From: an uncultured Prevotella sp.
GTDB lineage: Bacteria > Bacteroidota > Bacteroidia > Bacteroidales > Bacteroidaceae
Assembly: GCA_900314935.1 (NCBI GenBank)
Contig: OMXE01000009.1
Coordinates: forward strand, 44,345 to 68,344
Direction: 5' to 3'
Length of the DNA stretch: 24,000 nt
Of the stretch, positions 12,749 to 19,434 are shown piece by piece. Every line of letters begins with the position of its first letter. Within the stretch, counting starts at the first letter, position 1. The position numbers and the translations under genes were made by a program. Below the pieces are notes generated by a model. The model ran no database searches. It worked only from the letters and a program-made list of their open reading frames with translations, and was not told the DNA's origin.

Positions 12749-12756
12749 TACTTTTG
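12749..12756 (+). promoter_or_regulatory. -7 box (TACTTTTG) for the caspase-sigma operon
   Basis: It matches TAnnTTTG and ends 18 nt upstream of the ATG at 12774. Confidence 0.45.
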
Positions 12757-12773
12757 TAGCAAATTAAATAAAG

Positions 12774-15780: not shown

Positions 15781-18700
15781 GTCATTTGAAATACACCAAT
15801 GGTTATTATTTTTGTGAGCGTCTAACAAAATAAATGCAGCCCAATACTTAGGTTCATCATACCTTCCACCATCAACTTCACGAAGGTACTTCTGTGCAGA
15901 CAAAAGTGACTGGCGTTTACTTTGACCAGAAAGCAGATTCTTATAGAACTGAGTCATCAGTATCTGTGTAGCCTTATCATCTACTTCCCAAAGACTCATC
16001 AGGATGGATTTCGCACCCGCTTTTTTGAAGCCACGTTGCAAGCCAAAGACACCTTCGCCTTGTGCAATATCGCCTAACCCCGTTTGGCAAGCTGATAGTA
16101 CGACCAGATCAAGTCCACGCAAATCCACATCGGCAATCTCCTTGGCTGTCAAGATACCATCCTCAACATTATCGGGCAATACCTTGTCTTCCAGTATATG
16201 ATTGGCCCTTGACATTACTAAGCCCGAACGAGTCAAAGCCTTGTCTTCAGCTGAGACCATATTATTGTCTATAAGCATGAATTTGTAACGCGCATTATCA
16301 GCGTCTTCTTTGTTATAATAGAATCCATGAGTTGAGATATGCAGACATCCGACATTCTTTCCAGACAGAGCCTTAAAAGATTCTTCTGTCCCCATCGCTG
16401 CAGTGTCTAACACACATTCCCAATTTGCATTGTTAAGTTCTTTCCCTATTATGTCAACTTCCTCTTTAGTATGTTTGAGGAACTCTTTTCCGCCTCGCAG
16501 CCCCATTCCCTGCACTTTGGGTCGTTCTATAAACGCTTCATCCAGCATTGCAAGGCTCCTATCTGTTACGCTTTTGTCAAACTCCGCGTCATAGTTCAGC
16601 CCACCATATAACACGGCCCGATTCTTTGTCTCTATTTCCCTACTAGTAACCAACTCACGTGTAGATGATAACCGATATATATTATAGTTTTCCATCCCTG
16701 GCAGATACTCAATACCTATATTATAAAGGGCACCTGATGGAGAGAAATAAATATTCTTGATTCCTTCAAGCTCTGCTTGCAATGGTTTCCAAACCAAATC
16801 CGTCATTTCTTTAGATTGATAATGAAGTGAGTCTGGGAATCCAGTTAGTTGCTTTTCCTCAAATAGAGTTATCATCTTCGGGCTTTCTGAACCCTTTCGC
16901 AATAGCAATGCTGTATATACAATACTATCATTGTTTACAGGGAAAGATAAAAACTCTATTGCAACATCTTCTGGGTGGAGATGTTCCTGAATGTCTTTCC
17001 ATTTCAACTTCATACTACAAGTGATGTCACCATATTCCTTGCATTTCACAATGAGTGAATCCTCCAAACTATATATCACATTCTGCAAAGAATCGGCGTT
17101 GAGTTTTCTATATAAGGAATCTTTTTCCAAATTCTTTGCTAAAATATACCTGTCAGCCTTTAGTTCTGCCCATAAATTGTTCAATGTATCATCATTACTC
17201 TCTTCAATTACTCTTTTTACGCTATTCTCAGTAATAAGCAATGCACCTTTCATCATTAAAGACGCATTGTAAGCAGCCTCAATAATTGAATCTGAATGAG
17301 TATAATAAGCATAGGTGGGTATTTGCTGATTCAGTAAGTCAGAATAACCTTCAATATATTTGGAACGTTCATCGTATGTTAATTCTTGAAATGTAAACAA
17401 CAAATCCTCACCCGCTAACTTCATGAATTCAGCTGTGTATTTGATTAATTTGTCGATATCATTTAAGCAGAATGAGTATTGTAAAAGGTATGAAAGAGTT
17501 CTTTGATATAACTTTCTTTGCCGTTGTTTTTTATAAAACTCATCACAGCATAACAAATGATTAATCGCTTGTTTGAAGTTCCTTTTTCCTCCATATGCGA
17601 TTCCCAAGTTCATATTAGAATATGCCATGTTTTCGCTGTTTGGTGAAAAATACTTTTCTTTTAATTCAAGGCTTTTCTTCTCATATACTAATGCACTGTC
17701 ATATTGTTCTTTTTGATTGTAATAAGAGGCCAAATTTGAGAGTTTTGTAGTATAATTTGCATATCCGTTGTAAACATTGCTATATGTTATCGTCGTGGGC
17801 TTAGCCTGTGCCAAGCACTCCTTTTGTATTTCTATTGCTTTATCCGTTTCACCCATGGCGGAATAATATATTGCTATTTGATTCAGGTCATCACTAGTCG
17901 CAAAAGAAGGTCTATCTTGTATAGCACATTGATAACACTTGATAGCAGACTGAAAGTCTCTGATGCTATAATAGCACCATCCCATTTTCAACAAATTGGG
18001 TCCTGAATTATTTATTTCAATGAGTTTTCGGCAAGCCCTAAACGCATCCTTGTACTTTCCTGAGCTATTTAGGACATTTACATAAGAATCTAAAGCTAAG
18101 TTGTAATACCACTTCTCCATAGGACTCTTCAAGAATCTTTTTTCCCAAAAATCTGCGCGGTTTTTCTCAATCTGGATTGCTTTATCCCACATACCCGTCT
18201 TAGTGTAATAATTAGATAAGGTTGAATAATCAGACAATATAGGAAAATCATTTGAGAAATCAATAAGGAATAACTCTCTGATTCCTAAACTTTGTTCCAT
18301 ATATTTTACGGCAGAAAGATAATCCTCTTCTTCATACGAAATTTTGGCTAATTCTCTTAATGCAGACTTCCCCAACCAGTTTTCTTCTGATAATTTAGAT
18401 ATAATATCGTAACTATGCAGAAGATGTTTTTTCGCATCGGCGAAAAGCCTTTTCGAAGTATATGCTAGTCCTAAATCAAACAGAGACAATGCGTAACGAT
18501 GACTATTCCTACCAAGTGCAATAGAATCATATTCGCAAATCTTTTTATACCCTAAAACATCTACATTTTCAGTCCAGACATTTTTTAAAAAATTATACAA
18601 AGAATCAGATCTTTCAGTCAGAGTTCTGTCAAATGGTTCCAACATATAATCCAGATCTATAGTCTCTGCTTTTTCTTTTTGACCACTTTTATAATATGCA

Positions 18701-19434
18701 CATGCTAACCATATTCGAGAATAGTCACTTCTGTCTCTTGATAAAATCGAGTGATGGCAATAAAGTTTATCAAATGCGAAACATTTTTCAAAACACAAAA
18801 TGGCTTCTTGATATGCTTCTTTTTTATATAAATGTACTCCTTGTCTAAAGAGAGAATCAGATAAAGCTATAGAATCTTCTTTTGTTTGTAATGTGCTATT
18901 TGCATATGGAACAGAGTACCTTACTTCTCTCAAATAACGACTATTTAGCGCTGATATGGAATCATAAAACAAAGTGATAGAGTCAATGTGTAGTGTAGGA
19001 GCAAGGCTTATCGAGAAAACAGGTATACTATCCTTCGGAGCAGGAAAGATAATGTTAAAAGTGTCTGTTTGATATGCTTCTGAATGAATAAAAGAAATTG
19101 TAGTTTTAGGGAAAAAAGAATGTTTCTTTTCTCCTGTTTTATAATCTTTAAGAAATAACAAGTGGTTTTCTATGGTGAACGAAGAATTCGGTTTCTTGTT
19201 TTTTATTACCCATTTAGTTTTTAGACTATCGTTCTTATTCTCAATTGTTTTTAAAGAAAGAAAATGAGCATCTGTTTCTATAATTGCATCAACATCAGTA
19301 CCTGTATAGGCATTACCAACAACAATATAAGCACCATCCTGAGCATAGATATAGGATTGTGCATAGCATAACAGCAAGATAAAAATACATCTTACAATAA
19401 CCATTCTAATGCAAATATACAGCTTTATTTTCAT
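15772..19434 (-). CDS. Large secreted TPR-repeat CHAT-domain protein (caspase-fold protease)
   Basis: The track ORF starts at a TTG at 19440. The ATG at 19434 gives MKIKLYICIRMVIVRCIFILLLCYAQSYIYAQ, a signal peptide. The middle ~550 aa are TPR-like repeats with recurring A..Y/W...G....A motifs. The C-terminal CHAT domain has His context GCLHISTHGFYY and Cys context LVVLSACQTGLG, then GVFGLQRGFKKAGAKSILMSLWEVDD and YWAAFILLD. Confidence 0.9.
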   Translation of the reverse strand: MKIKLYICIRMVIVRCIFILLLCYAQSYIYAQDGAYIVVGNAYTGTDVDAIIETDAHFLSLKTIENKNDSLKTKWVIKNKKPNSSFTIENHLLFLKDYKTGEKKHSFFPKTTISFIHSEAYQTDTFNIIFPAPKDSIPVFSISLAPTLHIDSITLFYDSISALNSRYLREVRYSVPYANSTLQTKEDSIALSDSLFRQGVHLYKKEAYQEAILCFEKCFAFDKLYCHHSILSRDRSDYSRIWLACAYYKSGQKEKAETIDLDYMLEPFDRTLTERSDSLYNFLKNVWTENVDVLGYKKICEYDSIALGRNSHRYALSLFDLGLAYTSKRLFADAKKHLLHSYDIISKLSEENWLGKSALRELAKISYEEEDYLSAVKYMEQSLGIRELFLIDFSNDFPILSDYSTLSNYYTKTGMWDKAIQIEKNRADFWEKRFLKSPMEKWYYNLALDSYVNVLNSSGKYKDAFRACRKLIEINNSGPNLLKMGWCYYSIRDFQSAIKCYQCAIQDRPSFATSDDLNQIAIYYSAMGETDKAIEIQKECLAQAKPTTITYSNVYNGYANYTTKLSNLASYYNQKEQYDSALVYEKKSLELKEKYFSPNSENMAYSNMNLGIAYGGKRNFKQAINHLLCCDEFYKKQRQRKLYQRTLSYLLQYSFCLNDIDKLIKYTAEFMKLAGEDLLFTFQELTYDERSKYIEGYSDLLNQQIPTYAYYTHSDSIIEAAYNASLMMKGALLITENSVKRVIEESNDDTLNNLWAELKADRYILAKNLEKDSLYRKLNADSLQNVIYSLEDSLIVKCKEYGDITCSMKLKWKDIQEHLHPEDVAIEFLSFPVNNDSIVYTALLLRKGSESPKMITLFEEKQLTGFPDSLHYQSKEMTDLVWKPLQAELEGIKNIYFSPSGALYNIGIEYLPGMENYNIYRLSSTRELVTSREIETKNRAVLYGGLNYDAEFDKSVTDRSLAMLDEAFIERPKVQGMGLRGGKEFLKHTKEEVDIIGKELNNANWECVLDTAAMGTEESFKALSGKNVGCLHISTHGFYYNKEDADNARYKFMLIDNNMVSAEDKALTRSGLVMSRANHILEDKVLPDNVEDGILTAKEIADVDLRGLDLVVLSACQTGLGDIAQGEGVFGLQRGFKKAGAKSILMSLWEVDDKATQILMTQFYKNLLSGQSKRQSLLSAQKYLREVDGGRYDEPKYWAAFILLDAHKNNNHWCISNDLL

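Follow-up and report, generated by a model that had tools for sequence, protein, structure and literature searches.

Caspase-fold proteases have been tied to sigma factors in two described settings. In Myxococcus xanthus, the DdvS/DdvA pair consists of a sigma factor of the extracytoplasmic function (ECF) kind and a transmembrane anti-sigma fused to a periplasmic TPR-CHAT domain, which faces the juxtamembrane linker and is proposed to clip it before RseP acts; the pair controls a CBASS/CRISPR island, and DdvA-like fusions have been found only in Myxococcota and in one Comamonas (PMC11506125). The other is the type III-E Craspase (Csx29 TPR-CHAT, Csx30 and an RpoE-like sigma factor). Here we analysed a 24,000-nucleotide stretch of DNA from an uncultured Prevotella sp. 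(GenBank assembly GCA_900314935.1, contig OMXE01000009.1, positions 44,345–68,344 of the forward strand; ‘the window’, numbered from its first letter), in which genes for a C14 caspase-fold protease, an ECF-type sigma factor, a putative single-pass, anti-sigma-like protein and an HExxH metallopeptidase face a convergent gene for a TPR-CHAT protein. A preliminary description of these five genes, made from the sequence alone, had read them as a three-protease sigma switch that fits no known architecture. On balance, we think it probable that they are two adjacent things: a conserved envelope-signalling module, analogous to DdvS/DdvA but split and acting in trans, and an inserted gene of the Lit family.

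The statement that the cluster fits no known architecture is incomplete, as the fused DdvS/DdvA is a close functional analogue. Common to both are an ECF sigma factor, an anti-sigma with a single membrane span and TPR-CHAT on the periplasmic side (both predicted for the module) and defence genes nearby, together with a proposed order of events: a CHAT cut in the juxtamembrane linker, action of a site-2 protease and release of sigma. Unlike DdvA, the TPR-CHAT of the module is a separate exported protein by prediction (about 575–1220 aa), and its anti-sigma, of 219 aa, has a small TPR-like domain of its own (at most 430 aa in all among the best 150 family members) and lacks the zinc-binding CHCC motif. 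The sigma operon also encodes a second protease, of the C14 metacaspase-like kind; the host belongs to the Bacteroidota, and no CBASS or CRISPR genes under control of the module are found in the window.

Craspase also ties TPR-CHAT to an ECF-like sigma, and its sigma-binding partner is thought to be cleaved, but it is cytoplasmic and RNA-guided through gRAMP/Cas7-11, whereas the module’s proteases carry predicted signal peptides. Profile searches found no cas families among the window proteins and repeat scans no CRISPR arrays, in agreement with the preliminary description. Membership of type III-E was rejected on these grounds and on the score of the sigma factor against the III-E model (21 bits, cut-off 100). 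The E. coli sigma-E/RseA/DegS/RseP and Bacillus subtilis sigma-W/RsiW/PrsW/RasP systems combine an ECF sigma factor and its co-transcribed single-pass anti-sigma with an extracytoplasmic site-1 protease dedicated to the task and with autoregulation of the operon, as we propose here. In contrast to such classical regulated intramembrane proteolysis, the module has two site-1 candidates, and these belong to the caspase-fold cysteine proteases, not to the serine or metalloproteases; no site-2 protease is encoded in the cluster. Apart from DdvS/DdvA, literature searches for this gene combination brought up only Bacteroides families of anti-sigma factors that are unrelated, and neither CHAT nor caspase contexts are named in the main text of the ECF reclassification paper.

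Results

Four genes form a conserved module

The four plus-strand genes are tightly packed, with products of 291, 191, 219 and 297 aa by open reading frame (ORF) listing and translation, and are followed by the convergent TPR-CHAT gene:

12774–13649, plus strand: C14 caspase-fold protease, 291 aa (Pfam, dyad alignment)
13662–14237, plus strand: ECF-type sigma-70 family factor, 191 aa (TIGR02937)
14221–14880, plus strand: anti-sigma-like protein, putatively single-pass, 219 aa (gene position, topology, coupling of translation to sigma)
14887–15780, plus strand: Lit-family (Peptidase U49) zinc metallopeptidase, 297 aa (Pfam, PADLOC, NCBIfam)
15772–19440, minus strand: TPR-CHAT protein, about 1220 aa (Pfam CHAT, TPR families)

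The five ORFs, their catalytic motifs and their spacings (a 12-nt gap between caspase and sigma, a 17-nt overlap of sigma and anti-sigma, a 6-nt gap between anti-sigma and HExxH gene) are exactly as first described; the start given for the cluster, 12749, needed correction, since it marks a TAnnTTTG promoter box and the caspase ATG lies at 12774. The HExxH and CHAT genes converge with their stop codons overlapping by 9 nt.

About 90 related loci were compared. With the anti-sigma as probe, 8 came from genomes (rumen Prevotella metagenome-assembled genomes (MAGs) and relatives) and 75 from metagenomes, and the window proteins were placed on the fetched loci by tblastn. Among loci with room for the gene in question, sigma lies directly upstream of anti-sigma in 65 of 65, the caspase gene lies upstream of sigma in 53 of 58, and a CHAT gene follows within 6 kb downstream of anti-sigma in 42 of 47 (33 convergent, 9 on the same strand). 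The five-gene co-occurrence put forward in the preliminary description stands for these four genes and fails for the HExxH gene, which was present in only 4 of 57 loci. Sigma/anti-sigma pairs lacking the caspase occur in L030, L095, L099, L100 and L102.

The four-gene set stays together at 26–38% identity and in four gene orders, with the catalytic motifs conserved throughout the loci. Caspase, sigma and anti-sigma genes facing a convergent CHAT gene are found in the window and, at 36–51% identity, in L108. In L084 and L086 the same three genes are followed by CHAT on one strand; the CHAT product is 575–588 aa long with a predicted signal peptide (Pfam CHAT, 8.6e-41), and its start overlaps the anti-sigma stop. 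In L110 a single strand carries TPR-CHAT, caspase, sigma and anti-sigma in that order, their products being 32, 38, 26 and 30% identical to those of the window. The fourth order, also on one strand, is that of L112: TPR-CHAT, TPR-CHAT, AbiGi, caspase, a homologue of the companion gene o469 (below), sigma, anti-sigma and a second caspase, with an integrase at the locus end.

Most loci come from one environment, the rumen, and one genus, and many are 60–85% identical to the window, as would be expected if unrelated genes were held together only through the synteny of close relatives. The association nevertheless survives 26–38% identity, four gene orders and a change of CHAT strand; adjacent genes overlap at starts and stops, and a promoter motif is common to the set. 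We consider the probability of a chance neighbourhood negligible. The association of caspase, sigma, anti-sigma and TPR-CHAT is real, old and not frozen synteny.

Identities of the caspase, sigma factor and TPR-CHAT protein

Profile hidden Markov model searches confirmed the C14, ECF sigma, U49 and TPR-CHAT identities. The caspase matches Pfam Peptidase_C14 (PF00656) at 8.9e-15 (55.4 bits, cut-off 21.4). Its SCHG (residue 99) and DACHAG (residue 170) align with the catalytic SGHG and DSCHSG of yeast metacaspase-1 (4f6o) and GSU0716 (3bij), placing the His/Cys dyad at the catalytic positions as had been claimed; FSCHG is kept in 57 and DACHAG in 55 homologous matches. By its DxCHxG motif the enzyme is of the metacaspase/orthocaspase type. 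Apart from the animal caspases, all characterized C14 enzymes strictly require Arg or Lys at P1 (PMC5756287), and from this family rule and the DxCHxG motif only, the same specificity would be predicted here. The N-terminal hydrophobic region of the caspase ends, by hydropathy, in a cleavage-like GNA followed by Q.

The TPR-CHAT ORF (1222 aa) combines a variable N-terminal beta-rich region and TPRs (TPR_12, 2.1e-24, and other TPR families) with a conserved C-terminal CHAT domain (Pfam PF12770, 3.3e-52 over residues 877–1205), whose HISTHG at 1034 and LSACQTG at 1115 are conserved across 63 loci as HxxTHG and LSACxT. Elsewhere the N-terminal half has mostly diverged past detection, the median start of homology being at about query residue 650. 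A hydrophobic region at the N-terminus ends in YA followed by Q (hydropathy). Gln directly after the cleavage site is usual in Bacteroidetes signal-peptidase substrates. The start of this gene is ambiguous (TTG 19440, ATG 19434 or ATG 19404, minus strand); a TATATTTG box at 19419–19412 on the minus strand would favour 19404, from which the N-terminus is still signal-like (MVIVRCIFILLLCYA followed by Q).

The sigma factor, which has the two domains sigma2 and sigma4, matches the NCBIfam model sigma70-ECF (TIGR02937) at 1.2e-11 (44.5 bits, cut-off 42.9) and aligns over its full length with E. coli sigma-E (PDB 1or7) at 8e-4; its homologue in L110 matches Sigma70_r2 at 1.8e-7. Eight loci (L022, L045, L049, L062, L067, L075, L077 and L079) carry a sigma factor that is about 25–38% identical to that of the window and often 240–264 aa long, flanked by caspase and anti-sigma proteins that are 46–86% identical; it looks as if sigma was swapped there while the remainder of the operon was conserved. 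In the distant caspase- and CHAT-less pairs of L030 and L100, both Bacteroidaceae MAGs, the anti-sigma measures 327 aa and contains a long acidic linker; L030 runs on into a stretch rich in ATPase genes that resembles a defence island.

The anti-sigma-like protein and its juxtamembrane loop

The label ‘anti-sigma’ is suggested by gene position and topology and by the coupling of its translation to that of sigma. The protein is predicted to have N-terminal helices, a hydrophobic helix at residues 82–96 and an outer TPR-like domain of six helices at residues 100–219. The hydrophobic segment is short and preceded by Lys/Arg, with a Kyte–Doolittle mean of 2.07 over 15 residues and below 1.6 over 19. 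An AlphaFold2 model built with 63 family members gave a block-mean predicted local distance difference test score (pLDDT) of about 78–98 over residues 100–219 and above 90 over 130–219; segment 82–96 was helical, and the N-terminus was helical at low confidence. The outer domain weakly resembles small TPR domains that bind peptides (Fis1, MamA and the substrate-binding domain of P4H), at Foldseek E values of at least 0.24, and profile searches of the PDB together with Foldseek gave weak TPR matches only. This model is consistent with the single membrane segment and TPR-like half of the preliminary description. Residues 1–75 contain no Cys/His pattern. The family comprises 621 proteins in an indexed search and 3955 clusters at 50% identity in an exhaustive profile search, with lengths of 90–430 aa in the best 150 of the 3955 clusters.

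In the loop between the membrane helix and the outer domain, a basic residue with Gly or Ser after it is conserved, in the window A-R122-G-G-D:

14584–14592, plus strand: R122-G123-G124 codons, hypothetical site-1 cleavage site (loop conservation)

About 55 caspase-linked loci retain this pattern, among them the distant L108 (SRGET) and L110 (VRGGD); five caspase-less loci do not have it. Among 140 anti-sigma family representatives, 113 have [RK][GS]x and most others RG plus an aliphatic residue. Because C14 enzymes other than caspases cut after Arg or Lys and the window enzyme has DxCHxG, R122 is a candidate site-1 cut position.

A shared promoter motif and the companion genes

The genes o469, o141 and LytTR accompany the core in most loci. 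In the window they are arranged with the promoters as follows:

10574–11983, minus strand: o469, 469-aa cytoplasmic protein, conserved module companion
12015–12042, minus strand: ECF-like promoter of o469, GTTTACCTTTT-N10-GGTATAA (0 chance matches expected in the window)
12066–12093, plus strand: ECF-like promoter, GTTTACTTTCT-N10-GGTATAA, 5′ of the o192–caspase–sigma–anti-sigma(–Lit) operon (motif scan)
12123–12701, plus strand: o192, 192-aa basic protein, first operon gene in many loci
12749–12756, plus strand: TAnnTTTG-type −7 box TACTTTTG, 18 nt 5′ of the caspase ATG
19469–19496, plus strand: ECF-like promoter of o141, GTTTACCTTTT-N10-GGTATAA (motif scan)
19541–19966, plus strand: o141, 141-aa secreted protein by prediction (signal-like N-terminus, conserved C-terminus)
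20049–20453, plus strand: stand-alone LytTR DNA-binding protein, 134 aa (Pfam LytTR, 2.4e-6)

The ECF-like promoter, of the form TGTTTACCTTTT-N9-GGGTATAAT, lies 5′ of the sigma operon, o469 and o141. As the bipartite motif GTTTACYTTYT-N9-12-GGTATAA it has 3 exact matches in the window against 0 expected, and a repeat finder independently recovered the same motif pair. The B. subtilis sigma-W promoter is TGAAAC-N16-CGTATA, which the TGTTTAC-N16-GTATAA form here resembles. Because of this likeness to ECF promoters, we read the motif as the putative target of the module’s sigma factor, with an autoregulatory copy at the operon. TAnnTTTG is the Bacteroides housekeeping-type −7 promoter consensus; the box about 18 nt 5′ of the caspase ATG is kept in most loci.

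A position weight matrix made from 30 sites found 85 in the loci and window together. Sorted by downstream gene, 35 of these precede o141, 21 o469, 6 LytTR, 5 a 49-aa hydrophobic peptide, 3 o192 and 3 sigma; the others are mostly 5′ of unassigned ORFs, including lipoprotein genes beside the caspase- and CHAT-less sigma/anti-sigma pairs of L030 and L100, and none of the 85 lies directly 5′ of a caspase or CHAT gene. The motif stands 29–37 nt 5′ of o469 in 21 loci and about 45–50 nt 5′ of the o141 homologues (35 sites). The o469/o192 intergenic region has divergent copies in 12 of 12 distinct sequences, loci lacking o192 have the motif about 125–138 nt 5′ of the caspase gene, and the −35 box is still present in the distant L112. 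The peptide, a hydrophobic Cys-rich product of 48–49 aa (MGFIISCVIYIAVCEGIC...), is encoded about 45 nt 3′ of the ECF-like promoter in five loci (L043:9821, L048:6757, L058:4515, L070:17347 and L022:7059) and not in the window.

The o469 gene lies upstream in many loci, and its homologue between the C14 caspase and sigma genes of L112 is 28% identical; its AlphaFold2 model (pLDDT 91) has no fold match in the PDB. For o192, searches of Pfam, PADLOC and NCBIfam gave no family match. The o141 protein has an N-terminal signal-like segment ending in SFA before Q, a variable linker and a conserved 90-aa C-terminus with GPRGGQYY, and a weak match to Pfam PBCV_basic_adap (0.002). The R-G-G of GPRGGQYY is the same tripeptide as in the anti-sigma loop at 14584–14592, either by coincidence or, possibly, because the two proteins share a protease site. 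Pairs of o141 and CHAT genes are duplicated in tandem in L059, L070, L072 and L078.

By the number of promoter sites, o141 is the most frequent predicted sigma target, which raises the question of whether the proteases are inputs to the switch or its outputs. The sigma/anti-sigma pair might sense an envelope signal through the TPR-like domain, with the caspase and TPR-CHAT as periplasmic working proteases that mature or degrade o141, or destroy foreign proteins (bacteriocins or phage proteins, for example), and that lie nearby through co-expression or through action on products of the sigma factor. Such clients would account for the 35 promoter sites at o141, for its pairing and tandem duplication with CHAT genes, and for its R-G-G; the caspase, in an operon predicted to be autoregulated, would rise with sigma, and the anti-sigma family extends well beyond the caspase link (3955 clusters, with caspase-less pairs). 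CHAT genes, however, have no ECF-like promoter and so do not stand out as part of the regulon; four rearrangements, single operons among them, have left the four genes together, which fits one machine better; and DdvA carries CHAT on the anti-sigma itself (PMC11506125). We regard proteases as outputs as a possibility of some standing, though an unlikely one.

A Lit-family gene in a variable cargo slot

Of the two families suggested for the HExxH protein, U49 (Lit) proved correct and M78 did not. The protein matches NCBIfam Lit at 1.5e-33 (model 33–297 of 309; 116 bits, below the equivalog cut-off of 274), PADLOC Lit at 3.1e-29 (model 57–281 of 290) and Pfam Peptidase_U49 at 5.6e-13 (49.5 bits, cut-off 23.9), with HETAH at residue 164 and HETAH or HEFAH in 26 of 26 homologous matches. 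Like the E. coli e14 Lit, it matches the model over nearly its full length, is of the same size, is encoded by a single gene and has relatives in prophage-like regions; it differs in being a distant family member and in its place at the end of a sigma/anti-sigma operon and not in a prophage.

The exact Lit protein was found on 23 rumen-metagenome contigs with the same neighbours, and its clade is small (12 proteins at 90% clustering). Relatives at 36–40% identity stand alone in prophage-like regions, beside holin/amidase cassettes, AbiH and putAbiC, and none of them has caspase, sigma or anti-sigma genes beside it. A phage origin of this clade was tried and rejected: tblastn against 50,697 phage records (E of 1e-5 and of 1) and a viral-contig scan found nothing. 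In L005 (1262–3554), a SpoIIE phosphatase gene and a cyclase-like gene take the place of CHAT after an identical Lit gene; we set this arrangement aside as a probable assembly chimera, the scaffold having Ns and a jump in composition.

In the preliminary description the caspase and CHAT would supply a site-1 cut and the HExxH enzyme would then act on the cytoplasmic or membrane side of the anti-sigma. The gene does begin on the same strand 6 nt after the anti-sigma stop and lacks a promoter box, and its position and orientation after the anti-sigma are kept in all Lit-bearing loci. Yet 53 of 57 related loci have the other genes but not this one; its family is that of the Lit phage-exclusion protein, whose relatives occur alone; and unrelated cargo takes the same slot elsewhere. 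Hydropathy rules out a polytopic intramembrane protease (no 19-residue window reaches a Kyte–Doolittle mean of 1.6, the maximum being 1.51), Pfam gave no M50 match, and a site-2 role is unlikely. We therefore hold a three-protease cascade to be very improbable. Because of the 4-in-57 distribution, the U49/Lit identity and the lack of membrane spans, Lit appears to be an independent abortive-infection passenger gene and not part of the sigma switch. It is probably co-transcribed with the sigma operon, as it starts 6 nt after the anti-sigma stop and no promoter of its own is visible (the plus strand has no TAnnTTTG box over 13552–15806). Its dose may thus be coupled to the switch, and raised when the switch fires, without Lit being part of it.

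The slot between the anti-sigma and CHAT stops is empty, at 5–70 nt, in about 12 loci. Elsewhere it holds DUF3990 (Pfam 1.2e-37; PADLOC PDC-M13 4.7e-33) together with two small partner genes, a gene for a 99-aa helical protein, unrelated genes for 244-, 287- and 196-aa products on the opposite strand, or a gene for a 996-aa LRR/PLD/vWA protein. Other positions inside the module carry AbiEi/AbiEii (2.9e-52, 9.2e-93), HEC-02A/B (5.3e-133, 1.5e-44), TmtA (1.1e-237) and AbiGi (8.7e-19). Because the slot and these other positions carry varied recognized defence genes, the module is a place where defence cargo has landed repeatedly, Lit being one item of it. The 196-aa slot protein (L065:3920–4510, minus strand) has a caspase-like His/Cys spacing (..HIESHGN.., ..LSMCRS..), no Pfam match and a PHROG match of unknown function (5.6e-9).

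These insertions invite the view that the whole module is an anti-phage or anti-competitor immune system, in which TPR-CHAT is an envelope receptor for invader proteins, the caspase a relay and the sigma factor a switch for defence or dormancy genes; cargo nearby, Lit for one, would gain from the alarm. The recurrent landing of Lit, AbiEi/AbiEii, HEC-02, TmtA, PDC-M13 and AbiGi speaks for it, as do the divergence of the CHAT N-terminal half past detection while the CHAT domain and other genes are 50–85% identical, the integrase at the end of L112, and the base composition: G+C is about 37% across about 9,000–23,000 of the window against about 50% at the flanking housekeeping genes on the left. 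DdvS/DdvA, moreover, protects against a phage in addition to controlling its CBASS/CRISPR island (PMC11506125). The case is nevertheless one of guilt by association, and variable regions gather defence genes whatever their neighbours do. PADLOC gave only a weak, generic caspase match (3.4e-6) and nothing for sigma, anti-sigma or CHAT, and profile and fold searches found no match of o141, o469 or LytTR to known defence families. We judge that the module as a whole is quite unlikely to be an immune system.

Other features of the window

The left-hand housekeeping neighbours are purD-like GARS, DPP-IV, RlmL-like and NUDIX/NrtR genes, and the whole module lies inside the low-G+C block. On other contigs its base composition differs, and L084 looks G+C-rich.

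Several repeats lie outside the module. Inverted repeats of 109 nt (22076–22184 and 22799–22907; 84% complementary, 614 nt between them) sit in 1.6 kb lacking long ORFs just 5′ of a DUF3667 gene, with tandem repeats of 7 nt (11 copies) and 11 nt (4.5 copies) in or beside them; this block could be an invertible segment or an element resembling a miniature inverted-repeat transposable element. A 105-nt direct repeat (9065–9169 and 10252–10356, 83% identity) flanks a 110-aa ORF and a DUF1810 gene and may be the mark of a small insertion. A perfect 80-nt tandem repeat (23820–23997, 2.2 copies) reaches the window end. Rfam and tRNA scans of the window gave no matches.

Discussion

There is good support for the caspase-linked sigma switch as a conserved module, and the mechanism proposed for it is plausible. 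In the split DdvS/DdvA-like reading that we prefer, gene identity, co-localization and the promoter motif are the ground, and we infer the steps beyond them. The outer TPR-like domain of the anti-sigma would face the periplasm and TPR-CHAT would sense an outside ligand. One or both exported proteases would then clip the outer juxtamembrane loop of the anti-sigma, possibly after the conserved Arg122 in A-R-G-G-D, and a housekeeping site-2 protease encoded elsewhere would complete the cleavage. The freed sigma factor would activate TGTTTACCTTTT-N9-GGGTATAAT promoters at its own operon, o469, o141 and, in some loci, LytTR. Lit would have been inserted in the short slot between the anti-sigma and CHAT genes. 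That the proteases gate anti-sigma cleavage is in our view probable; for the site-1 cut by an exported caspase-fold enzyme, suggested in the preliminary description, DdvA is now a published precedent (PMC11506125), and the cut in this module is proposed by analogy.

Several observations weigh against this scheme. No ECF-like promoter was found 5′ of CHAT genes in the loci or the window, so the regulatory tie between CHAT and sigma is one of position. The anti-sigma has no significant match to a named anti-sigma family or a PDB entry (best NCBIfam anti-sigma model, 0.02). Export of the caspase and CHAT, claimed there too and in keeping with their signal-like N-termini, is, like that of o141, predicted from hydropathy and cleavage-like sites with Ala before Gln. 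The promoter itself holds an inverted repeat, TGTTTAC-N25-GTAAACA (window 19465–19508, and in loci), with its right arm at about +1; it might serve a second regulator, perhaps the LytTR protein, in place of sigma or in addition to it, or might be a conserved initial transcribed sequence.

The loop evidence also has exceptions. In L076 and L115 the caspase is present and the loop motif is missing at the aligned position. A strict link between an Arg-Gly loop and the caspase failed a set test, as the motif-less P0275 is still in a caspase–sigma–anti-sigma operon (L115); the link is therefore only a tendency. The correlation may reflect descent alone, the motif-less caspase-less loci being also the most divergent.

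A bolder version would make the module an envelope immune sensor of Bacteroidota, in which the hypervariable TPR-CHAT detects a phage or competitor protein outside the cytoplasm, a protease relay cuts the anti-sigma, and sigma induces o141, o469 and LytTR along with cargo such as Lit. We offer this as speculation that is unlikely to hold.

Protease-gated ECF sigma switches are a main bacterial route to sensing the outside, and caspase-fold proteases have only recently entered them, with DdvA (2024) and the link between Craspase and sigma. If our reading is true, Bacteroidota, a dominant gut and rumen phylum, have this logic in a split version made of several proteins, with CHAT acting in trans rather than in cis, two different caspase-fold enzymes, a defined promoter and a small regulon. 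It yields testable predictions in the anti-sigma cleavage loop, the promoter consensus and the reporter genes for sigma activity, and it corrects the tempting view that the adjacent HExxH protease belongs to the switch. As a hotspot for repeated defence insertions (Lit, AbiE, Tiamat, HEC-02, PDC-M13), the locus is useful for finding new Prevotella defence genes. Were the immune-sensor version to be true, the module would be an in-trans protease-cascade alarm and its locus the anchor of a defence island.

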